This document shows positions 7,462-34,641 of a stretch of 38,181 nucleotides of DNA, piece by piece (within the stretch, counting starts at the first letter, position 1; every line of letters begins with the position of its first letter). This stretch comes from a virus: the UHGV virus genome UHGV-0208715; one strand, given 5' to 3'. A program made the position numbers and the translations under genes. Under the pieces are notes generated by a model that ran no database searches, had not been told where the DNA came from, and saw only the letters and a list, made by a program, of their open reading frames with translations.

Positions 7462-8178
7462 TTATATAATCACACGACCGATAAACTTAATATCGGAATC
7501 TTCAAACTTAAACAGCAAATCTATATAATCTTTGTTAAGGGAAACTAATCTAAGCGTTTTTGTTTCTTCGTATACATAGACTTTCTTAATATAAGCTTCA
7601 CCATCTACCTCCACCACATAAATTCTACCATTTTGAATAGTATCTATGCCTTGCTTAAATTCGTCCACATACACGATATCACCAGTATCAAATAATGGCT
7701 TCATAGAATCTCCAACTATTTTAAATATCCAATCATGTTCTGGCGCATCTGCTGGAACTTCTACTATATCTTTGTCTGCTTCATAGTAGTTTAGAATACC
7801 AGTACCAGCTGATAAGTAAGCTTGCACCTCTTCATGGTTATTTTGAACAGGGAATTGAACCACTTTACTATTTTGTTCTTCAAGTTGCTGTTCAGCGAAG
7901 TTGTAGACTTTTGTTTGTCTTGGTTTTTCTAATTGATTGTAGATTGTTTCAATAGAAGGAACATTATCGTCTTCCCAACCCATTAAAAAAGCTGGGGTCG
8001 TTTTCAAAATTTCTGCAATATCACCAAGAATATTAGTAGGCAATTTTTCGATATCACCTTTTTCATATCTAAAGATAGTAGATCTAGAAACTCCAAGCTT
8101 TTCCGCAACGACATCAGCGCTTAATTTTAATTCCTTTCGCCTTAGTTTTATTCTCTCACCTATATCCATTTCTTTCAC
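7462..8178 (-). CDS. cI: CI-like repressor: N-terminal XRE-family HTH plus C-terminal S24 (LexA-like) autopeptidase
   Basis: HTH LSADVVAEKLGVSRSTIFRYEKG. S24 motifs GDSMKP (Ser) and AYIKK (Lys). Divergent from cro. Confidence 0.85.
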   Translation of the reverse strand: MKEMDIGERIKLRRKELKLSADVVAEKLGVSRSTIFRYEKGDIEKLPTNILGDIAEILKTTPAFLMGWEDDNVPSIETIYNQLEKPRQTKVYNFAEQQLEEQNSKVVQFPVQNNHEEVQAYLSAGTGILNYYEADKDIVEVPADAPEHDWIFKIVGDSMKPLFDTGDIVYVDEFKQGIDTIQNGRIYVVEVDGEAYIKKVYVYEETKTLRLVSLNKDYIDLLFKFEDSDIKFIGRVII

Positions 8179-8202
8179 CTCTTGAATATATTATAAATCA
8201 CA

Positions 8203-8306
8203 TGTTGCAAAAACGCAACAAATTAAAATCGCAATAATGCAACTTTCGTATTGACTAATATATTTTCGGGTGGTATATTTGGTTCAACAAGTCGCGATAA
8301 TGCGAC
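8203..8306. promoter_or_regulatory. Genetic-switch region with three related operator palindromes (TGTTGCaaaaacGCAACA 8203-8220, TCGCaataatGCAAC 8229-8243, GTCGCgataatGCGAC 8291-8306) and a near-consensus sigma-A promoter for cro (TTGACT-17-TGgTATATT, 8251-8279)
   Basis: Perfect and imperfect inverted repeats with a GCAAC/GCGAC half-site between divergent repressor and cro genes. A TATAAT on the minus strand (8190-8195) suits the repressor promoter. Confidence 0.6.
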
Positions 8307-8326
8307 AAAAGAAAGGAGTGAGGTTC

Positions 8327-8569
8327 ATGATCAACACAAACAAGTTAAAAGGTCTAATCGTAGAACGGGGCACTACTCAACAAGCAGTAGCAGATTCAAT
8401 CGGAATCGATCGAAGTACTTTTTATCGAAAAATGAAAAAAGGTGGAGATTTCTCGATTGAAGAAGCAAAAAAAATGAAGCAAGAAATCCCACTAACTGAT
8501 CAAGAAGCAATCGAAATTTTTTTTGGAGGAAAAGTCGCATTTACGCTACAGAACAAACAAACAACATAA
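8327..8569 (+). CDS. cro: Cro-like XRE-family HTH regulator (the ORF-track start at 8270 is likely too early; the ATG at 8327 has an AAGGAG RBS)
   Basis: HTH TQQAVADSIGIDRSTFYRKMKKG. Divergent from cI. Confidence 0.75.
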   Translation: MINTNKLKGLIVERGTTQQAVADSIGIDRSTFYRKMKKGGDFSIEEAKKMKQEIPLTDQEAIEIFFGGKVAFTLQNKQTT

Positions 8570-16707: not shown

Positions 16708-17019
16708 TCTATACCAATTTTCGGAAAAGTGCATAGTAGTGAAGGGTAAGTGCATAGTTTAGAACTCAACTATTCACTCCTTCAAACCCTTGATATTACT
16801 ATATTTATATTACTTTTTTTATATAAAGTGAATAGTAGTGAATAGTTAATATAAAAGAGTAAATAAAAAAGTAATAAAGGAAAAATATATAAAAGAATAG
16901 GAATTTGGGTCAAACTATGCACTACTGTTCACCTTATCACGCTGTATCCATTGGGGGAGTAAGCATGAAGGCAGGTGAATAGTTTAGGCTGACTATTCAC
17001 TTTATTAGGAGGTCCAAAA
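16708..17019. repeat. Putative origin of replication: iterons GTGCATAGT and GTGAATAGT in direct and inverted copies around an AT-rich core
   Basis: GTGCATAGT at 16729 and 16750 (21-bp spacing). GTGAATAGT tandem at 16828 and 16838 (10-bp period), and at 16975. Inverted copies at 16768-16780, 16913-16934 and 16992-17000. AT-rich 16781-16912. Confidence 0.55.
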
Positions 17020-24592: not shown

Positions 24593-24955
24593 ATGGACGA
24601 TAAGAAAAGGAAGCGCCTAGTAACGAACGAGATAAAGCGACTAACGGATATCTTTAAGGAAGTTGATAATAAGAAGCAGCGGACAGTCAAGGGTTTGATT
24701 GAAGAATCGGCATTTATGAAGACTACGCTGCTTGAATTAAAAGAAATCATTCAAAATGAAGGCGTAATTAACGAAATGCCGCAAGGTGAGTACTCAATCA
24801 TGCGTGAACACCCTGCTTTGAAGTCATACAACACAACTATACAACGATATACGACAGTTACTGAGAAACTTCTTGGCTTGTTGCCTAAGGATGCTCCTAG
24901 AAATGACGATGGTTTATCTGAATTCAGCGCCTTTCTAAGTGAGAGGGCGGATTGA
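24593..24955 (+). CDS. terS: Terminase small subunit (P27-family-like)
   Basis: 120 aa with a basic N-terminus, directly upstream of and overlapping terL. Confidence 0.7.
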   Translation: MDDKKRKRLVTNEIKRLTDIFKEVDNKKQRTVKGLIEESAFMKTTLLELKEIIQNEGVINEMPQGEYSIMREHPALKSYNTTIQRYTTVTEKLLGLLPKDAPRNDDGLSEFSAFLSERAD

Positions 24956-24956
24956 T

Positions 24957-26648
24957 GTGGATTATCAAGAAACGAACATTTTCAAATACTGGAAAAGCTT
25001 TAGGCAAAACGGCGGAAGCACAGTAGTCTCTTTAAAGATATTCAAACTATATAAAAAGCTAGTCGCTGATCTGGAAAATACAGATAGCGACTATTATTTT
25101 GATCCAAAACGTGCGAAACATCCAATTGACTTCATAGAAAAGTTTTGTCACCCATCAAAAGGGAAACAAGCGAACAAGCCTTTGAAGTTAATGCTTTGGC
25201 AAAAGGCAATGATTGAAGCGATATTTGGATTTGTGGATATCGAGGGCAATAGAAAGTATCAGCGAGTATTTCTACTCATAGGTCGTAAGAATGGTAAGTC
25301 GGCAATCGCTTCAGCAATCGGACTTTATATGATGATTGCCGATCAAGAAAACGGATCTCAAATATTAGCAACGGCTGCTAAGAAAGATCAAGCGAAAATC
25401 ATTTGGCAAGAAGCGAAATTGATGGTTAAAAAATCACCAACACTAAGAAAAATGATTAAAGCTAGAGTGGCCGACATGGTAGCCGAATTTAACGACGCTG
25501 AATTTAAACCCTTGGCTAGTGATTCGGATAGTTTGGACGGGTTAAACGCTCATTGCTCATTGATGGATGAAATTCATTCGTGGAAAGGGCGTGGCGGACG
25601 TCCACTGTATGACGTAATCGTTGATAGTATGTCTGCTCGTGAGCAACCTTTAATTTTGATTACCACAACTTCTGGTACAACTCGTGAAGACATCTTCGAT
25701 GAACTTCGTGAAGAAATGGGAGACATCATTGATGGCTGGGATAATGCTGAAGGCTATCAAGATGATCGCACAATTCCATTCATGTACGAATTAGACGATC
25801 CAGAGGAGTGGCGAGACGAAGAAATGTGGGTCAAAGCTAATCCAGGAATCGGCGTTATCAAGAAATTGCAATCATTAAAGGAAAAAGTTGACCTTGCGAA
25901 ACAAAATCCTCGTATGGTACGCAACATGCTATGTAAAGAGTTCAATATTAACGAATCTGATACGGACGCATGGTTAAGCTTCAACGATTTCAACAATGAA
26001 TCAACCTTCAATGTTCTTGAACTCAAGCCAAGGTATTTTATTGGCGGTATTGACTTGTCAGCAACCACTGACTTAACTTGTGCGACTGCAATATTTGGCA
26101 TCAAGGACGAGCCTAACAAACTTTATGTCATGCAACAGTACTTTATGCCAAGCGACTTGTTTGAAGAGCGTATGAAGGATGACAAGGTGCCATATGACAA
26201 GTGGAAAGACCAAGGAATTATCACTCTCTCTGGTGACAGTAAAGTTGATTACAAGGATGTAACAAAGTGGTTCGTAAAAATGCAAATGGAATACGATATC
26301 TACCCGTTCAAAATTGGGTATGATGCTTGGAGTTCGGCGTATCTGATTGATGAATTGAAGAATGCGTTTGGACCTTCTGTTCCTGAAGCTGTTTACCAAG
26401 GATTCAAATCTCTCTCTGCTCCTATGAAAGCATTGGGTGCTGATTTAATGAGTGACAATATCAATTACAACAATAACGGGTTGTTAAAATGGTGTATCTC
26501 TAACACGCGTGTAAAAACGGACGAGAACGCCAATATAAAACCTGTTAAGGGCAACAACCCTAGAAAGCGTATTGATGGTTTGGCAAGTCTTTTGGACGCT
26601 TATGCGACATTTGAAAGGTACATGGAAGAATACCTTGGATTGATTTAG
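24957..26648 (+). CDS. terL: Terminase large subunit (Terminase_1 family); start probably the GTG at 24957 (GAGAGGG RBS) rather than 24939
   Basis: N-terminal ATPase with Walker A LIGRKNGKS. C-terminal nuclease region. 560+ aa. Confidence 0.85.
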   Translation: MDYQETNIFKYWKSFRQNGGSTVVSLKIFKLYKKLVADLENTDSDYYFDPKRAKHPIDFIEKFCHPSKGKQANKPLKLMLWQKAMIEAIFGFVDIEGNRKYQRVFLLIGRKNGKSAIASAIGLYMMIADQENGSQILATAAKKDQAKIIWQEAKLMVKKSPTLRKMIKARVADMVAEFNDAEFKPLASDSDSLDGLNAHCSLMDEIHSWKGRGGRPLYDVIVDSMSAREQPLILITTTSGTTREDIFDELREEMGDIIDGWDNAEGYQDDRTIPFMYELDDPEEWRDEEMWVKANPGIGVIKKLQSLKEKVDLAKQNPRMVRNMLCKEFNINESDTDAWLSFNDFNNESTFNVLELKPRYFIGGIDLSATTDLTCATAIFGIKDEPNKLYVMQQYFMPSDLFEERMKDDKVPYDKWKDQGIITLSGDSKVDYKDVTKWFVKMQMEYDIYPFKIGYDAWSSAYLIDELKNAFGPSVPEAVYQGFKSLSAPMKALGADLMSDNINYNNNGLLKWCISNTRVKTDENANIKPVKGNNPRKRIDGLASLLDAYATFERYMEEYLGLI

Positions 26649-26662
26649 AAAGGGGTGAGAAA

Positions 26663-27844
26663 TTGAAATTATTTAATCGGAAAGTAAACGAAACTCCGAA
26701 AACTGTAACGAAGTTTCAAATGATTGATGAACCTAGTTCTGGATTTGTTGGATTTAGTGGGAATGTTTATGAAGCCGACATTGTGCGAAGCGCTGTGCGA
26801 CCACTTGCAAATGCAGTTGGGAAAACAGTGCCTAAACATAGGTTTGGTGACAAGATTAATCCTAACATTGCTGTATCGATGGTGCTTCAGGAACCCAACG
26901 CCATTATGAGCATGCAAATGCTGCTTGAAAAAACGATTTGGCAGTATCGGGTAAATGGGAATGCCTTTATTTATGTGGAAAAAGATGATAACGGAAAGCC
27001 CGTTGCGCTTTATCCAATCGTTTCTCACTCTTTGGAGTTATTAGTTAGCCCTAGCGGCGAGTATTTTATTAAGTTTGTTCTGCGTGATGGTAAATCCTAT
27101 ACCTTTAGATATCGGGACCTCATTCACATTAGGAATGACTTTACTTCAAACGAAATATTAGGTGATAGTCTAGCGCCGTCGCTTTTACCATTGCTTGAAG
27201 TCGTTCAAACAACCGACCAAGGGATCATAGCAGCGATTCGAAACTCAAACGTTGTTAAATGGCTGCTTAAATTCAATCAAACCTTGCGGCCTGAAGATAT
27301 CAAAGAAAATACGAAGCAGTTTGTTGAAGATTTCCTTCGGACTGATTCAGAAGGTATTGGAGCCGCTGGTGTCGATTCTAAGGCTGATGCAGTTCAGGTG
27401 CAACCTTATTCCTATGTTCCTGAAAAAGAACAGTCAGCCGCAACGAGACAGCGTATTTTAGACCTATTCAACTCCAATGATTCAATTATTCAATCTAATT
27501 TCACTGAGAACCAGTGGATTGCCTATTACGAAACACAAATCGAGCCAGTGTTGATCCAACTATCAGATGGATTTACAAAGGCTTTTTTTAGTAGGCGAGA
27601 AAGAGCATTGGGTAATTCAATTATGTTTGAATCCAACAATCTTCAATTTGCAAGTATGCAAACGAAGTTACAAATGGTTGGCTGGCTAGATCGTGGTGTG
27701 ATGACTGTGAATGAATATAGAACGATTGCATTGGGATTAGAGCCTGTCGAAGGCGGAGATATGCGCTTACTTCGAAAAGACACTGACAGAATTGGGCAAA
27801 ACAATATAAGAGAGGGGGGTGCAAATGAAGAAGATTCAGCTTAA
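26663..27844 (+). CDS. Portal protein (HK97 family)
   Basis: 393 aa, TTG start with an AAAGGGGTGAG RBS. Position between terL and the protease. Confidence 0.8.
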   Translation: MKLFNRKVNETPKTVTKFQMIDEPSSGFVGFSGNVYEADIVRSAVRPLANAVGKTVPKHRFGDKINPNIAVSMVLQEPNAIMSMQMLLEKTIWQYRVNGNAFIYVEKDDNGKPVALYPIVSHSLELLVSPSGEYFIKFVLRDGKSYTFRYRDLIHIRNDFTSNEILGDSLAPSLLPLLEVVQTTDQGIIAAIRNSNVVKWLLKFNQTLRPEDIKENTKQFVEDFLRTDSEGIGAAGVDSKADAVQVQPYSYVPEKEQSAATRQRILDLFNSNDSIIQSNFTENQWIAYYETQIEPVLIQLSDGFTKAFFSRRERALGNSIMFESNNLQFASMQTKLQMVGWLDRGVMTVNEYRTIALGLEPVEGGDMRLLRKDTDRIGQNNIREGGANEEDSA

Positions 27845-28496
27845 AGGCGATGTCGTTTCCGACAATGTGGGTAAATTGTTCGATTGGTTTGATTTAGATT
27901 CAATTTATCCGGGAAACGTCAAACGAGCATTAGAAGATGCTGGAAGTGAAGATGTAGAAATTACATTGACCACAAATGGCGGCTCTGTATTTGCCGGTCA
28001 AGAGATTTACGACATTATTAAAAACCACGAAGGCAAAACGACCGTTAAGTTAAGTGGTTTGGTAGCCAGTATCGGTACATTGATTACATGCGCATTTGAT
28101 GAAGTACTTGTAAGTCCTGTATCTACGTTTATGATCCACAATCCAACACTAGCTGATGTTAGTGGTGAGAAAAAGGATATGGAAAAAGCGGCTCAACTAT
28201 TAACTACCGTTGAAAATTCTTTGCTAGATGCTTATGTAGCAAAAACAGGACTAGACAAAGAAGGCTTGGCAGATTTAATGGCCAAAGAAACATTCATGAC
28301 CGCACAAGAAGTAATTGATTATGGATTTGCCGATGGAATGGTTAAAGATTCGGAAAGCGAGTTACTTTTAGTAGCTGGTTTCGAGAGTTTAGCCAATTCG
28401 TCATTTATCAAAAAACTACAAAATATGAAGGACAAAGAAGAACGTGATTTGGCGAACGCTAGATTTCGTTTTTTAAGTTTGAAGGAGGAATTGTGA
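27825..28496 (+). CDS. Prohead maturation protease (ClpP/S14 family)
   Basis: Serine in LSGLVASIGTLIT (GxSxG-like) and MIHNP motif. Position between portal and capsid. Confidence 0.8.
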   Translation: MKKIQLKGDVVSDNVGKLFDWFDLDSIYPGNVKRALEDAGSEDVEITLTTNGGSVFAGQEIYDIIKNHEGKTTVKLSGLVASIGTLITCAFDEVLVSPVSTFMIHNPTLADVSGEKKDMEKAAQLLTTVENSLLDAYVAKTGLDKEGLADLMAKETFMTAQEVIDYGFADGMVKDSESELLLVAGFESLANSSFIKKLQNMKDKEERDLANARFRFLSLKEEL

Positions 28497-29641
28497 TGGA
28501 TTTAGAAGCAATTAAAAAACTATTGGCTGAGGGAAAGATTGAAGAAGCCAATGCAGCGATGGATGAACTAGAAGTAAATAACAAAGTAATATTTGAAGAA
28601 CCTAAACCAGCGAAAATCGAAGACAAAGCGCTGGAAAATAAAAAACCAGAAGAGGTGGCAAATTTGAAAAAAGTTGAAGAAGTGAAAGATGTGGCTAAGT
28701 CGTCAGAAGTAGAAGTGTTTGCAAAAATTTTAATGGGGCGTGAGTTGACCGTCCAAGATAAAGTTAAATTTGAAGATGTATATAACGCAGCATACACACA
28801 TCAAGTATCAAACCAGCCTTTATTAATTCCAGAAACAGTAATGCGTGGGATTTTAGAGCAAGTGGAAAAAGAACATCCGTTTTATGGAGAAATCACAAAA
28901 TTAAATGTAACTGGTAACTTTACAATTAAACAACATACAGGTGTAAAAGCAGGGTATGCGGCATTTGTGGACGAAGGAACGCCAGCGACAGATACAGAAA
29001 ACGAATACGCTGAAATTACATTGACAGGTTTTGAACTTGCTAAACTTGTGCGTATCTCATGGAAATTAGACGCTATGTCTATCGAAGAGTTTGTACCTCA
29101 TATTCAAAACCTTATCGCTACTGAAATTGGTGATACATTAGGTTACACAATCTTTAATGGAACTGGTGTAAAACAACCTAAAGGTGTGTTGAAAGTTCTT
29201 TCTGAACAAGTAGGAACTCCACAAGTTGTTACAGCGACTGGTTCAATTGGGTATACTGATATTACGAACTTACGTTCTAAAGTAGCTTCAAAATTTGCGA
29301 ATGGCGCTAAGTTTTATGCGAAATCTACAACTGTATGGAATGATTTGGCAACAGTGGTAGATGGTAACGGTCGACCTGTGTTTATTCGCGAAATTGTAGA
29401 TGGTGGTGTAGGTACTATTTTTGGTATTCCAGTTGTGGAAGACGACGGTGTTCCAGAAGGCGAAGTTTTATTGGGAAATCCATCCGCAGGTGTTATCCAA
29501 AATACAAATGTTCCGTTTTCTATTCAAACTGAGCGCAGTGTGGTAAACCGTGAAAATATTTATCAAGGGTATACATTACTTGATTGGGCTGTAACATACA
29601 CACAAGCGTTCGCACACTTGAAAGTAACAGCGGGGGAGTAA
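28496..29641 (+). CDS. Major capsid protein (HK97 fold) with N-terminal delta/scaffold-like coiled-coil domain
   Basis: About 380 aa. K/E-rich N-terminal 110 aa, then a typical HK97 MCP core. AAGGAGG RBS. Confidence 0.85.
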   Translation: MDLEAIKKLLAEGKIEEANAAMDELEVNNKVIFEEPKPAKIEDKALENKKPEEVANLKKVEEVKDVAKSSEVEVFAKILMGRELTVQDKVKFEDVYNAAYTHQVSNQPLLIPETVMRGILEQVEKEHPFYGEITKLNVTGNFTIKQHTGVKAGYAAFVDEGTPATDTENEYAEITLTGFELAKLVRISWKLDAMSIEEFVPHIQNLIATEIGDTLGYTIFNGTGVKQPKGVLKVLSEQVGTPQVVTATGSIGYTDITNLRSKVASKFANGAKFYAKSTTVWNDLATVVDGNGRPVFIREIVDGGVGTIFGIPVVEDDGVPEGEVLLGNPSAGVIQNTNVPFSIQTERSVVNRENIYQGYTLLDWAVTYTQAFAHLKVTAGE

Positions 29642-29790
29642 TTTCCCCTACTTCGTTAGGGGTAGCCGACTTAGAAAAGCCGACTAGTGACAATACTGTT
29701 GTGGAAATCAAAGCCTATTTAGATACGGTTGGTATTTCTTACAAATCCAATGCTACTAAATCAGAATTATTGGAATTGGTAGGTGAATAG
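29584..29790 (+). CDS. Rho_N/SAP-like small ORF overlapping the capsid 3' end in the -1 frame; likely expressed as a C-terminal extension of the MCP by frameshifting rather than independently
   Basis: No convincing independent start. EIKAYLDTVGISYKSNATKSELLELVGE resembles Rho N-terminal / SAP-like motifs. Confidence 0.4.
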   Translation: MGCNIHTSVRTLESNSGGVISPTSLGVADLEKPTSDNTVVEIKAYLDTVGISYKSNATKSELLELVGE

Positions 29791-30049
29791 ATTGGAGAGT
29801 AATTTGTTAGATAACCTAAAAAAGCATATCCGATTAGAGGAGGGCATGGATGATTCTATGCTCTCTTTTTATGCTGAATCAGCAAAGCGATACGTAAAAA
29901 AGAAAATTGGCTATGAACAAGAGTATTTAGAAATTATGGTGACAACCGTCATGTTCGAACACCGACTTTCGTCTGATGATCTCAAAGAAGCGTTGATGGC
30001 TTTAGAACCTATTTTCGCTTTGGAGGTGTTGACTGATGAGCCTACTTAA
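29783..30049 (+). CDS. Head-tail connector protein (gp6-like), GTG start
   Basis: 88 aa. Conserved position after the capsid. Confidence 0.6.
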   Translation: MNRLESNLLDNLKKHIRLEEGMDDSMLSFYAESAKRYVKKKIGYEQEYLEIMVTTVMFEHRLSSDDLKEALMALEPIFALEVLTDEPT

Positions 30050-31688: not shown

Positions 31689-32152
31689 TGGCTAGATTAG
31701 TTGACTACGGAATTAATATTGACGACTTAGGCAACTCTCGTGTGGTTAATATTAAAGGGCATGACTTTCCCGTTGTATTTACAATGGAAACGATGGAATA
31801 TATTGCAGATGTATATGGGGAAGACTACTCGAAATTCGAAAATGATATGAATCTTTTGATCAATAAAAGCGATGGGGAGATCAATTCTCGTAATTTGACG
31901 CCTGCTGATTTAAAAATCATGCGCTCGTTGATCTATGGAATGCTTCGGACTGGCGGTTTAGAGGAAGATCCTCAAACTATCTTCAAATTCTTAGGTATGA
32001 ACGGCGATGTCTTACAGGCTTATGGGGCATGCATGGAAATTTTTAGTAATCAGAAGTTTCAGGTTGAAGACTTAAAAAAATCGAAGAAGCCACAAGATTA
32101 TCAAACTCCTCAAAAGAAAAAAGGAAAAAACAAGAAGAAACACAAGAGATAG
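31688..32152 (+). CDS. Tail assembly chaperone (G-like); a -1 frameshift at A_AAA_AAA (32074-32080) would give a GT-like product ending at 32333
   Basis: Position before the TMP. K-rich C-terminus. The -1 frame is open from 32068 to 32333, just upstream of the TMP start. Confidence 0.6.
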   Translation: MARLVDYGINIDDLGNSRVVNIKGHDFPVVFTMETMEYIADVYGEDYSKFENDMNLLINKSDGEINSRNLTPADLKIMRSLIYGMLRTGGLEEDPQTIFKFLGMNGDVLQAYGACMEIFSNQKFQVEDLKKSKKPQDYQTPQKKKGKNKKKHKR

Positions 32153-32183
32153 GAACTCCATGGAGCTTCTATCTCTATGTTGC

Positions 32184-32220
32184 CCTCACTCTACTTAATT
32201 GGAGTGAGGAATTTTTTTTA
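32184..32220 (+). terminator. Intrinsic-terminator-like hairpin between chaperone and tape-measure genes (inside the putative GT extension)
   Basis: CCTCACTC-10nt-GAGTGAGG stem followed by AATTTTTTTT. Confidence 0.4.
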
Positions 32221-32343
32221 AAAGCAACACCTAACTTGTGGCTTAAATCTTATATCCAGTGGTTGAAAAGTAATACGGAGTTTGAACCACCGGAAACGAG
32301 AACAATGGATCAAAGCCCTTGGTGGTAGGAAAGGAGTGCTAAG

Positions 32344-34641
32344 ATGGCCGTAAGAGAGGTAGACACAGTCTTGAATTTTAAGACAAATGGAGAAGTCAAT
32401 TACTCTAAAACGATCAAGGAAATCAATCGCGAAATGAACTTAGCAGCTACTGAGTACAAAAACCAAGTGTCTGCTATGGATAAAGACGCAACAGCAACTG
32501 AAAAGCTGACTGCTGCGAAAAAGAAACTCGAAAATCAGTTATCGCTCGCTGAAAAGCGAACAGAACTTTTGCGAGAACAATATGAAAAATCAGTAGAAGA
32601 AACTGGTAAGTACTCAGCAGAATCTGAAAAACTTTATAAGAAGATGCTTGAATCCGAAACAGGGCAAAACAAATTAAAAGCCGCCTTGGATGAAACAAAT
32701 GAAGCGTTAAAAGAACAAGGTGATGTATCTATTGATACAGCCAAAAAGTTACAAAAAATCGAAGAAGCTGGCGAAAAGGTTTCAAATGTCGGTAAGAAGA
32801 TGTCCATTGGCGTTACAGCTCCGATCGTGGCAGCTGGAGCGGCAGGGCTAGCTGCATTCTCAGAAGTTGATGAAGCGTTAGATACGATCATAACCAAGAC
32901 AGGAGCAACAGGCGATGTTGCTGACAGTTTGGCAACTTCGTTTGAAAACGTTGGCTCAAATACTCACTTGGAACTACAAACAGTCGGAGAAGCAATTGGT
33001 GAAGTGAATACTCAATTTGGGTTCATGGATAAAAAGCTTGAGGACTCAACCAATTATATCCTTCAATTTGCTGAAATTAATGGCACAGACGTTTCTCAAT
33101 CCGCTATCTATGCAAGACAGGCTATCGAAGCCTATGATTTGTCATATGATGATTTGAATAAAGTATTAGACGTTACAACCAAAACGTCTCAAAATACTGG
33201 TCAAGCAGTCGACAGTCTATTTGATTCGGCTATAAAAGGTGCCCCACAAATCAAACAGTTAGGTCTAAGTTTCGGCGAGGGTGTCACATTGATGGGTCAA
33301 TTCGAACAAGCTGGTATTGACGGAAATGCAGCTCTAAGCAGTTTGTCCAAAGCAACAGTTACCTACGCTAAAGATGGAAAATCTCTTTCAGAAGGTTTAG
33401 GTGAACTTCAAAACAAAATAATGAATGCTAGTTCAGAAACAGATGCTATCAACGCAGCGGCTGAAGTTTTTGGTACCAAAGGCGGCCCAAGAATGGCAGA
33501 TGCGATTCGAAGAGGAACGTTAAACCTAGAAGACTTGGCAAAAATCGCAGATGAAAGCCAAGGAGCGGTTGGAGAAACATTTGAAGCCACGCTAGATCCA
33601 ATTGATAAGTCTAACCAAGCGATGAACAATGCGAAATTAGCTTTAGCTGACGTAGGTGAATCCGTCCAAATAAGCTTATTGCCTTTCTTTGAAATGGCGA
33701 TCGATGCTTTGAAGAGTTTTAAAGGCTGGTGGGATTCTCTGGATCAAGGTACTAAGAACTGGATTATTACGATTGCAGGGATTATAGCAGCTGTTGGTCC
33801 GGTTTTAGTGGTTTTAGGAATGCTTATGAGTTCGGTTACCAAGATTGCAACTGGAATAAGGGTTTTACAAGGTGTATGGTCTGGGATGACGGCATTACTA
33901 GCAGCAAATCCTTTTGTTCTGGTAATTGCTGGTATTGCACTGCTCATAGCAGGATTAGTTCTTGCCTACAATAAAGTGGAATGGTTTAGGAACGGTGTGA
34001 ATGCATTCTTCCAAGGTGTTTCTGATATAGCGGTAGAAGTATTTAATTTTATGGGCGGATACATTAGCAATATTTTTGGAGGAATCATACAAAATTTCCA
34101 AAACTTTTTCGATGCTGGTAAGAGAATTTTCACCGGATTTATAGATTTTATAACCGGAATATTTACAGGTGATTGGGAACGAGCTTGGAACGGCGTTGTA
34201 AACATTTTCGGTGGTATCTTTGATGGAATTGCAGCTATGGCAAAAGCACCTTTTAATGGAATGATTGGATTAATTAATGCTTTTCTAGGTGGTCTTAATA
34301 ACATTAAAATTCCGAAATGGGTTCCTGGCGTAGGTGGAAAAAGCTTTAGCATTTCTACTTTGCCTTATTTGGCAGATGGCGGGCATGTATTGAATGGACA
34401 AGCGATCGTTGGTGAAGCTGGACCAGAATTGCTTACGAACAAAAACGGTAAGACAACTGTTACTCCGTTATCAGACGAAGAAAAACGCAAAGGCATTGGC
34501 GGCAAAGTACAGCCTTCTAAAGTGGAACAACATATCCACATTGGGAATGTCGATGCAAATAACCCAAGCGAATTGAATAAAATGAACCGTAAATTTTACC
34601 GTGCAAGCAAACAAGCACTTGAAGGCGTAGGAGGTCGATAG
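32344..34641 (+). CDS. Tail tape measure protein
   Basis: 765 aa. Long N-terminal coiled coil. Gly/Ala-rich hydrophobic segments (GIIAAVGPVLVVLGMLM). Canonical position. Confidence 0.85.
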   Translation: MAVREVDTVLNFKTNGEVNYSKTIKEINREMNLAATEYKNQVSAMDKDATATEKLTAAKKKLENQLSLAEKRTELLREQYEKSVEETGKYSAESEKLYKKMLESETGQNKLKAALDETNEALKEQGDVSIDTAKKLQKIEEAGEKVSNVGKKMSIGVTAPIVAAGAAGLAAFSEVDEALDTIITKTGATGDVADSLATSFENVGSNTHLELQTVGEAIGEVNTQFGFMDKKLEDSTNYILQFAEINGTDVSQSAIYARQAIEAYDLSYDDLNKVLDVTTKTSQNTGQAVDSLFDSAIKGAPQIKQLGLSFGEGVTLMGQFEQAGIDGNAALSSLSKATVTYAKDGKSLSEGLGELQNKIMNASSETDAINAAAEVFGTKGGPRMADAIRRGTLNLEDLAKIADESQGAVGETFEATLDPIDKSNQAMNNAKLALADVGESVQISLLPFFEMAIDALKSFKGWWDSLDQGTKNWIITIAGIIAAVGPVLVVLGMLMSSVTKIATGIRVLQGVWSGMTALLAANPFVLVIAGIALLIAGLVLAYNKVEWFRNGVNAFFQGVSDIAVEVFNFMGGYISNIFGGIIQNFQNFFDAGKRIFTGFIDFITGIFTGDWERAWNGVVNIFGGIFDGIAAMAKAPFNGMIGLINAFLGGLNNIKIPKWVPGVGGKSFSISTLPYLADGGHVLNGQAIVGEAGPELLTNKNGKTTVTPLSDEEKRKGIGGKVQPSKVEQHIHIGNVDANNPSELNKMNRKFYRASKQALEGVGGR

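Follow-up and report, generated by a model that had tools for sequence, protein, structure and literature searches.

In this study, the 3' end of the major capsid gene was analysed in the virus genome UHGV-0208715, a stretch of 38,181 nucleotides (nt) that is called the window here. In this Enterococcus-type phage, a -1 frameshift at the end of the gene very probably makes a second, longer capsid protein, fused to a small domain of the helix-extended loop-helix (HeH) type. The initial annotation had proposed that a -1 slip on a G-run joins the capsid gene to an open reading frame (ORF) in the -1 frame. This proposal is supported by the conservation of the motif, by the 10 nt to which the shift is narrowed in some relatives, by the position of a hairpin, by known heptamers in relatives, and by in-frame fusions of the same domain. 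The frameshift signal is invisible in the window sequence alone, and the case rests on conservation across relatives. GGGGGAR (R, purine) is not rare in the window, with 3 sites versus 4.15 expected. One candidate, GGGGGAGTAA at 16953, was rejected as a mere Shine-Dalgarno (SD) sequence followed by ATG.

The capsid gene lies between a ClpP-type prohead protease gene and a head-tail connector gene, and ends ACA GCG GGG GAG TAA, with the stop at 29639-29641. The -1-frame ORF is open over 29584..29790; it shares 58 nt with the end of the capsid gene and runs 49 codons beyond the stop. This geometry around GCG GGG GAG TAA (29630-29641) had been described before and agrees with the sequence and the ORF list. 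The codons GCG, GGG, and GAG represent 18%, 12%, and 20% of their synonyms in the window phage, and all are minority codons.

Relatives, numbered with an L here, were collected from four contigs with the small ORF, from 80 IMG/VR loci, and from genome and metagenome scans; scanning viral contigs with one protein alone yielded none, and a narrow capsid alignment run against genome contigs yielded 2 loci. The window clade comprises 19 distinct sequences with 51-100% capsid identity. Genome matches came from Enterococcus diestrammenae and Brochothrix campestris; a Vagococcus metagenome-assembled genome and a prophage protein of E. casseliflavus also appeared. Among deposited phages, Enterococcus gallinarum phage phiEG37K is nearest; its capsid protein is 70% identical, and its corresponding 160-nt stretch is unannotated. 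GGGGGAG followed by TAA or TGA is invariant in 19/19 sequences of the clade, although the capsid 3' end diverges freely. L002 and L004 have TGA rather than TAA, a synonymous change from GTA to GTG in the -1 frame. The codon preceding GGG is GCG, ACG, or ATG in the clade, TCG in L012/L086, and GAG in L080/L082; its final base is constantly G, even though it encodes A, T, S, E, or M across these G-run lineages. In five relatives (L002, L010, L011, L090, and L091), a TAA lies in the -1 frame 10 nt upstream of the capsid stop. Therefore, the frame change in these relatives is confined to AGCGGGGGAG.

The -1 frame is open in all relatives. In L094, one nucleotide is gained inside the hairpin and one is lost about 12 nt later, which restores the -1 frame and indicates that the linker is translated. 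Brochothrix L012/L086 (capsid 49% identical) carry TCG GGG GAG TAA, a different linker, and an HeH domain (E 2e-4). L080/L082 (capsid 38% identical) carry GAG GGG GAA TAA, then a Rho_N-like extension. The combination of G_GGG_GAR, a stop, and an open -1 HeH/Rho_N ORF is found in three lineages whose downstream nucleotide sequences are unrelated.

The extension had been described as carrying a Rho-N/SAP-like motif. A two-helix type with an extended loop is predicted, and the extension matches the HeH/LEM profile slightly below its gathering score: the C-terminal 30 residues match PF12949 with an E-value of 2e-6 and 27.8 bits (gathering score 28.9). phrog_12526 matches the extension at 39 bits. 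AlphaFold2 predicted a disordered 20-residue linker, a helix at residues 23-33, an extended loop, and a helix at residues 43-50, with a predicted local distance difference test score of about 90. All Foldseek matches of this model were non-significant by E-value; the nearest of these non-significant neighbours were SAP domains (CDNF/MANF) and the C-terminus of T4 endonuclease VII, with root-mean-square deviations of 0.7-1.6 A. Against more divergent relatives, the proportion of nonsynonymous differences (pN) in the HeH domain is 0.03-0.26, versus 0.54-0.75 for synonymous differences (pS). The HeH domain is under purifying selection. In view of these values, it is scarcely credible that the -1 ORF is unexpressed, that is, a chance open frame or a decaying gene remnant. 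Such an ORF might well be unannotated, as in phiEG37K, and score slightly under the Pfam gathering threshold. However, the frame is open in every relative, even by way of compensating indels, the fold of the domain is predicted with confidence, and some capsid proteins of other phages carry this domain as an in-frame fusion.

The sole PDB sequence match of the extension was 2OUT (FluMu gp35, HI1507), at residues 92-120, a C-terminal motif of a Mu-like prophage protein (E 0.05). The gp35 gene presumably adjoins the major head gene T; if so, this would be another capsid-adjacent HeH. In addition, locus L065 (IMG/VR 3300028594_000025) has a separate gene of 178 amino acids (aa) right after the capsid gene, with its own ATG and a C-terminal HeH motif. 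The N-terminal part of its product is weakly similar to head-fiber or cement proteins, and the HeH module thus sits on another capsid-associated protein. An exhaustive HeH search returned no capsid fusion among the long proteins matched.

The HeH ORF might instead encode a separate small protein, which is translated by its own initiation or by reinitiation after TAA, for example from AUU/AUC at 29641 beside the SD-like GGGGAG, or from GTG 29701. We consider this unlikely. As the initial annotation stated, the -1 ORF has no plausible start: neither TTG 29584 nor GTG 29701 is preceded by an SD. GTG 29701, once put forward as the possible start of an independent peptide, fails on conservation, as it is missing in 6/19 distinct sequences of the window clade. 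In 4/19 (L005, L091, L093, and L094), no ATG, GTG, or TTG occurs between the shift site and the first helix, and gene callers called the small ORF with four different starts. The sole universal near-start in the clade is AUU/AUC at 29641, which is codon 3 in 19/19 sequences; L006 also keeps GGTGGAGA-ATC. This codon is just 2 nt past the GGAG core of the G-run, whereas the spacing is 6 nt at the connector gene in the window, and AUU/AUC is a very rare initiator. Moreover, AUU is replaced by ACA in L012 and by AUA in L080/L082, although both keep G_GGG_GAR and the stop. No correctly spaced, SD-preceded start of the kind expected for an independent phrog_12526-type HeH gene was found, and GGGGAG was rejected as an SD of the -1 ORF, with no start codon at workable spacing.

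Several observations agree with a separate protein. Stand-alone HeH genes lie between capsid and connector genes in other phages, such as an 84-aa gene in S. agalactiae phage vB_Sags-UPM1 (PMC10221047). ORF7 of the Listeria phages A118 and A500 has an ATG that overlaps the stop of the capsid gene cps and is annotated as a separate coding sequence (CDS), and phrog_12526 is a family of called ORFs of roughly 53 aa. GGGGAG also resembles the SD of the next gene and forms part of a 12-nt direct repeat shared with it. However, a separate protein leaves unexplained the invariant G before GGG, the rare-codon G-run, the hairpin at +7, and the canonical heptamers at the same position in relatives.

The RNA around the site can form two hairpins, each about -8 kcal/mol when folded in isolation. 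The earlier description of two stable hairpins is not confirmed as it stands, because they compete for one CCCC run (29645-29648) and are mutually exclusive. Hairpin 1 was rejected as a stimulator, since the slip site lies inside it; thus, only hairpin 2 can stimulate. A ribosome sitting on the heptamer would already have melted hairpin 1, whose pair counts show zero covariation, with 5/6 pairs invariant. Hairpin 2 follows the heptamer after a 6-nt spacer, with its first paired base at +7, within the range of 5-9 nt for a stimulator; in L012 and L082, the hairpin starts at +9 versus +7 in the window clade. In L093, both sides of the closing A-U pair of hairpin 2 are changed to give G-C; in L094, a 7-bp stem is kept with a 5-nt loop; in L002 and L005, a seventh pair is gained with a UUCG loop. 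This retention of the stem despite loop changes is suggestive of a stimulator role. A possible third hairpin lacks conservation in L094, and its pairing is weaker in L087 and L093. The conserved linker also contains a direct repeat of AGCCGACT, at 29664-29671 and 29678-29685, 14 nt apart, which is kept in most of the clade but not in L094. Long-range pairing of 29641-51 with 29698-708 was rejected, as it is not maintained in L093, and a role of hairpin 2 as a terminator was rejected, with no terminator-like site on the + strand. An Rfam search of 29400-29900 gave no match.

We infer that the shift is ribosomal and that its product enters virions. In the proposed mechanism, a minority of ribosomes on the capsid mRNA would slip back one base at G_GGG_GAG (29632-29638), most likely while tRNA-Gly occupies GGG in the P site and tRNA-Glu occupies GAG in the A site, with hairpin 2 at the mRNA entrance. 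The initial annotation had placed a P-site slip on G_GGG (29632-29635). A slip on the G-run is retained here; the geometry fits GGG in the P site with GAG in the A site, and the junction may therefore be AGE-VISPTS rather than AGG-VISPTS. In this arrangement, the base of the +7 hairpin would lie about 13 nt from the first P-site nucleotide. This is the usual geometry of -1 frameshifting. tRNA-Gly would re-pair perfectly (GGG to GGG), and tRNA-Glu (anticodon UUC) would exchange G-C, A-U, and G.U on GAG for G-C, G.U, and A-U on GGA, the same pair types reordered. Alternatively, the P-site tRNA-Gly may slip alone, or tRNA-Glu may slip with the stop in the A site. The junction peptide, AGE-V or AGG-V, would distinguish these modes: the predicted tryptic junction is VTAGEVISPTSLGVADLEK if both tRNAs slip in tandem or tRNA-Glu slips in the P site, and VTAGGVISPTSLGVADLEK if P-site tRNA-Gly slips before GAG is decoded. 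Hairpin 1 would probably form in free mRNA and yield to hairpin 2 once a ribosome opens the G-run.

An RNA-level change could also join the two frames, if RNA polymerase slips on the G5 run and some mRNAs have one G fewer or two more. This is very unlikely. The site is a homopolymer run, and some relatives have A7-A9 runs, which are known to allow such slippage according to a passage in Atkins et al. (2016; PMC5009743). However, slippage of this kind would not need GAR plus stop or a hairpin at ribosomal spacing, and the G_GGA_AAC/A sites of A118, A500, and phage phiPYB5 are tandem-slippage heptamers, not long runs. Five G are also well below the usual run length for productive transcriptional slippage.

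With ribosomal frameshifting, slipped ribosomes would bypass TAA and add a Pro/Ser/Thr-rich linker of roughly 20 residues and a 30-residue domain of the HeH/SAP type. The resulting long capsid species, Cps-L, about 5 kDa larger, would be built into capsids together with the unextended protein. Because T7 10B and the Ig-like extensions face outwards, the HeH extension probably lies on the outer capsid surface as well. As a guess, its ligand there might be DNA, teichoic acid, or another polyanion.

Several points weigh against a frameshift at this site. G_GGG_GAG fails the canonical X_XXY_YYZ pattern: GGG fits XXY, GAG does not fit YYZ, and what it does contain is the single-tRNA slip motif G_GGG. 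tRNA-Glu on GGA after the shift would pair via G.U in the middle position. No recorded use of this heptamer was found, and it is missing from the shift sites named in the searched passages of Atkins et al. (2016; PMC5009743). The RNA folds no better than shuffled sequences (z -0.1 for 29620-29720 and -0.55 for the 60 nt past the heptamer). Hairpin 2 is weak, at -8 kcal/mol versus about -20 kcal/mol in A118, and its covariation is a single compensatory event, reached by 31/500 shuffles. No in-frame capsid-HeH fusion was found among 93 homologs of this capsid family. In L006 (IMG/VR 3300011919_000012, about 2620-2650), a clean 9-nt deletion of CGGGGGAGT removes the G-run and stop. The capsid frame of L006 then runs through six more codons before it meets a TAG within hairpin 2, while its HeH ORF is still in the -1 frame with no recognisable slip site; L006 might represent a recent loss or faulty assembly, or it might hint at AUC initiation. 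In addition, an island of about 90 nt with near-100% nucleotide identity (29632..29722) begins exactly at the G-run, with flanks at 50-70%, in a 15-nt window profile of L010, L090, L091, and L092. In L002, L005, L010, and L091, pS is 0.07-0.14 in the linker versus 0.54-0.72 in the adjoining HeH codons. The island reflects either RNA-level constraint or a recombination joint, and it could be a recombination footprint instead of a trace of RNA constraint.

The same position is used by other slip sites and by fusions. Within the same capsid family, L072 has A_AAA_AAG two codons upstream of the stop and a -1 Rho_N extension, and L083/84 have A_AAA_AAG, then TAG and a strong hairpin at +7 (z -4.5). 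Their extensions pass the Rho_N profile with 38 and 40 bits, versus a gathering score of 24.9. About 17 further loci of this family have A_AAA_AAA (A_AAA_AAG in L077 and L061) and -1 CBM_X2/Ig-like extensions of up to 224 codons. A tblastn search with the extension against deposited phages gave 91 records, and the following details come from the subset of these that was examined. phiPYB5 and JCL1032 have GCG GGA AAA and a stop, after which come a hairpin (pairing from +7 in phiPYB5) and an HeH extension in the -1 frame. LF1 has UCA AAA TAA, with an A_AAA slip only and a hairpin identical to that of phiPYB5. The layout of heptamer then stop is likewise found in A118, A500, phiPYB5, JCL1032, LF1, and L083/84. 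In the Streptococcus phages Pika, Javan626, and Javan414, the domain lies in the +1 frame behind ACG/ACA CCC AGN.

In prophage Lj771 and phage phi jlb1, the major head protein carries HeH as an in-frame fusion; in the Lj771 protein, phrog_422 matches residues 2-292 and phrog_12526 residues 307-344. These fusions have the same domain family as the window, in the same position between the capsid body and the connector. The stand-alone HeH proteins next to capsid genes (vB_Sags-UPM1 and FluMu gp35) also agree with the window in domain family and genomic position. In contrast to the window, the fusions and the stand-alone proteins need no recoding, and their capsid bodies belong to other families (phrog_422, GpE type, and Mu T). 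The stretch equivalent to the window extension is unannotated in phiPYB5, LF1, Pika, Javan626, and Javan414. In Lactobacillus phage JCL1032 (L106, NC_019456, 1385-1620), a 56-aa ORF9 is annotated in the wrong frame; the -1 frame after G_GGA_AAA TAG and a 10-bp hairpin gives a 69-residue extension ending in HeH.

The initial annotation had compared the site with recoding in the Listeria phages PSA and A118. This analogy is closer than stated, since the frameshift extensions of these phages are HeH/SAP domains too. For PSA, A118, and A500, the arrangement has experimental precedent. According to a passage in Atkins et al. (2016; PMC5009743), which cites Zimmer 2003 and Dorscht 2009, the coat genes of A118 and A500 use -1 frameshifting and that of PSA uses +1. 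The capsid gene of A118 and A500 closes with GCG GGA AAC TAA, and a 52-codon ORF in the -1 frame follows, named HeH/LEM domain-containing protein in RefSeq. The hairpin after their heptamer begins at +7. A118 ORF7 is 45% identical to the window extension over 29 aa (BLASTP E 1e-6), with HeH at the same residues (21-49). In both A118/A500 and the window, the shift, proposed in the case of the window, falls within the final two sense codons before the capsid stop; the heptamer is followed by a stop, 3 nt, and a hairpin whose first paired base is +7; the -1 extension has 52 aa in A118/A500 and about 50 in the window; and a head-tail adaptor gene comes next. The capsid protein ends in AG(N) before the stop in A118/A500 and in AG(E) in the window. 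However, A118 and A500 have the canonical G_GGA_AAC and a hairpin of about -20 kcal/mol, compared with the non-canonical G_GGG_GAG and about -8 kcal/mol in the window. A118 also differs in its capsid protein, which is of another family with a scaffolding protein instead of a ClpP-type protease, and in that ORF7 has its own ATG whereas the window ORF has none. From these comparisons, the window cassette appears to be the same device as that of A118, with another heptamer and a weaker hairpin.

In PSA (RefSeq NC_003291), cps is a two-piece CDS with ribosomal slippage. Its 47-residue +1 extension, which contains MKVVELKEELDKRGITYNTSDLKSDLILKL, scores 28.2 bits with SAP, above the gathering score, and also matches HeH. 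PSA and the window share the gene order large terminase (TerL), portal, Clp protease, PF05065 capsid, and connector, and PSA has a 47-aa extension with a SAP/HeH motif. The difference is that PSA shifts +1 on ACA_CCC_U with a pseudoknot, as given in part of Atkins et al. (PMC5009743), versus a proposed -1 shift on a G-run in the window; Pika, Javan626, and Javan414 follow the PSA pattern. As in Cps/Cps-L systems, the window has its proposed shift in the last capsid codons, directly 5' of the connector, and an extension of 50 aa with HeH (47-52 from PSA to A118). The major tail gene tsh is followed by an ORF (8111-8443 in A118, L103; 8184-8423 in A500, L104) whose product is annotated as having an Ig-like domain. 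Therefore, in these phages the tail extension is Ig-like and the capsid extension is HeH; a paragraph in Atkins et al. (2016; PMC5009743) treats their capsid and tail extensions all under Ig-like domains. In the Lactobacillus phage A2 (gp5A/gp5B) and in T3/T7 (10A/10B), a -1 shift near the capsid end likewise yields a minor long capsid species in virions (PMC5009743, in part). The capsid proteins of the A2-like phages iA2 and PLE2 are 35% identical to that of the window. However, the extension is Ig-like in A2 and T3 and of another type in T7, compared with HeH in the window, and the slip sites differ too.

A literature search in an incomplete library found no paper that links HeH, SAP, or Rho_N with capsid and frameshift, and no statement of an HeH module joined to capsids by interchangeable recoding across Firmicute phages. 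Nor did it find the Listeria cps extensions described as HeH/SAP domains. Given the incomplete library, these negatives are weak evidence.

Table. Features of the head module and of the capsid 3' end in the window
Feature	Coordinates	Strand	Basis
Large terminase gene	24939..26648	+	siphophage head module of the window
Portal gene	26663..27844	+	
ClpP-type prohead protease gene	27819..28496	+	
Major capsid gene, HK97 type, 382 aa, ending in VTAGE and stop	28493..29641	+	ORF list; Pfam Phage_capsid PF05065, E 2e-32; phrog_10 major head protein, E 1e-55
Proposed -1 slip site G_GGG_GAG	29632..29638	+	invariance in relatives
Hairpin 1, GGGGAG-uaau-UUCCCC, about -8.3 kcal/mol, alternative fold with slip site and stop inside	29633..29648	+	shared CCCC
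Putative -1-frame extension, GGA GTA ATT to TAG 29788-29790, (G/E)VISPTSLGVADLEKPTSDNTVVEIKAYLDTVGISYKSNATKSELLELVGE	29635..29790	+	ORF list
0-frame stop TAA, immediately 3' of the heptamer	29639..29641	+	alignment of relatives
Hairpin 2, CCCCUA-cuucgu-UAGGGG, about -8.1 kcal/mol, candidate frameshift stimulator	29645..29662	+	folding
Possible third hairpin, imperfect, predicted to stack on hairpin 2	29663..29686	+	minimum free energy structure; holds AGCCGACT twice
HeH/LEM (SAP/Rho_N-like) helix-extended loop-helix domain	29695..29781	+	Pfam HeH, phrog_12526, AlphaFold2
Connector gene SD (GGAGAG), spacer, and TTG start	29794..29806	+	repeat analysis; phiEG37K connector CDS annotated from the equivalent TTG
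Head-tail connector gene (gp6-like)	29804..30049	+	Pfam PF05135; phiEG37K CDS

A PDB sequence search with the capsid protein found no relative. The HeH ORF is bracketed by a 12-nt direct repeat, GGGGAGTAATTT at 29633-29644 and GGAGAGTAATTT at 29794-29805 (11/12 identical), and the connector gene has its SD, spacer, and TTG start within the second copy. If the segment between the copies were deleted, a normal junction of capsid stop and connector start would remain; therefore, the HeH module resembles a cassette that can be inserted, and an SD may have been the origin of the slip site. Elsewhere in the window, a tail-assembly-chaperone -1 frameshift arrangement of the classic type was observed, with an 86-codon -1 ORF (32068..32328) that shares 82 nt with the end of the chaperone gene (stop 32150-32152) and ends shortly 5' of the tape-measure gene at 32344. 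This overlap contains A_AAA_AAA and A_AAA_AAC heptamers, with slip candidates at 32074-32080 and 32125-32131.

In a wider context, G_GGG_GAR followed by a stop may be an unlisted natural -1 site in phages of low-GC Gram-positive bacteria, with tRNA-Glu re-pairing from GAG to GGA, and HeH/SAP may be a widespread capsid decoration that is attached interchangeably via at least four -1 heptamers, +1 shifts, and in-frame fusion; this wider proposal is tentative, and we give it somewhat less than an even chance. The findings bear on annotation: in phiEG37K, phiPYB5, LF1, JCL1032, Pika, and several Javan prophages, the 150 nt that follow the capsid gene have either no annotated gene or a wrong one. 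The Listeria cps frameshifts and many phages of Enterococcus, Lactobacillus, Streptococcus, and Brochothrix would be unified by a capsid protein with an optional HeH/SAP tail. The conserved non-canonical heptamer would provide a concrete substrate for slip-site rules in Firmicutes, and the presence of a DNA-binding-type motif on a fraction of capsid subunits would be a question approachable by shift-abolishing mutants. If true, the capsid display of HeH/SAP would parallel what has been described for Ig-like domains, with a module that binds nucleic acid or polyanions in their place.

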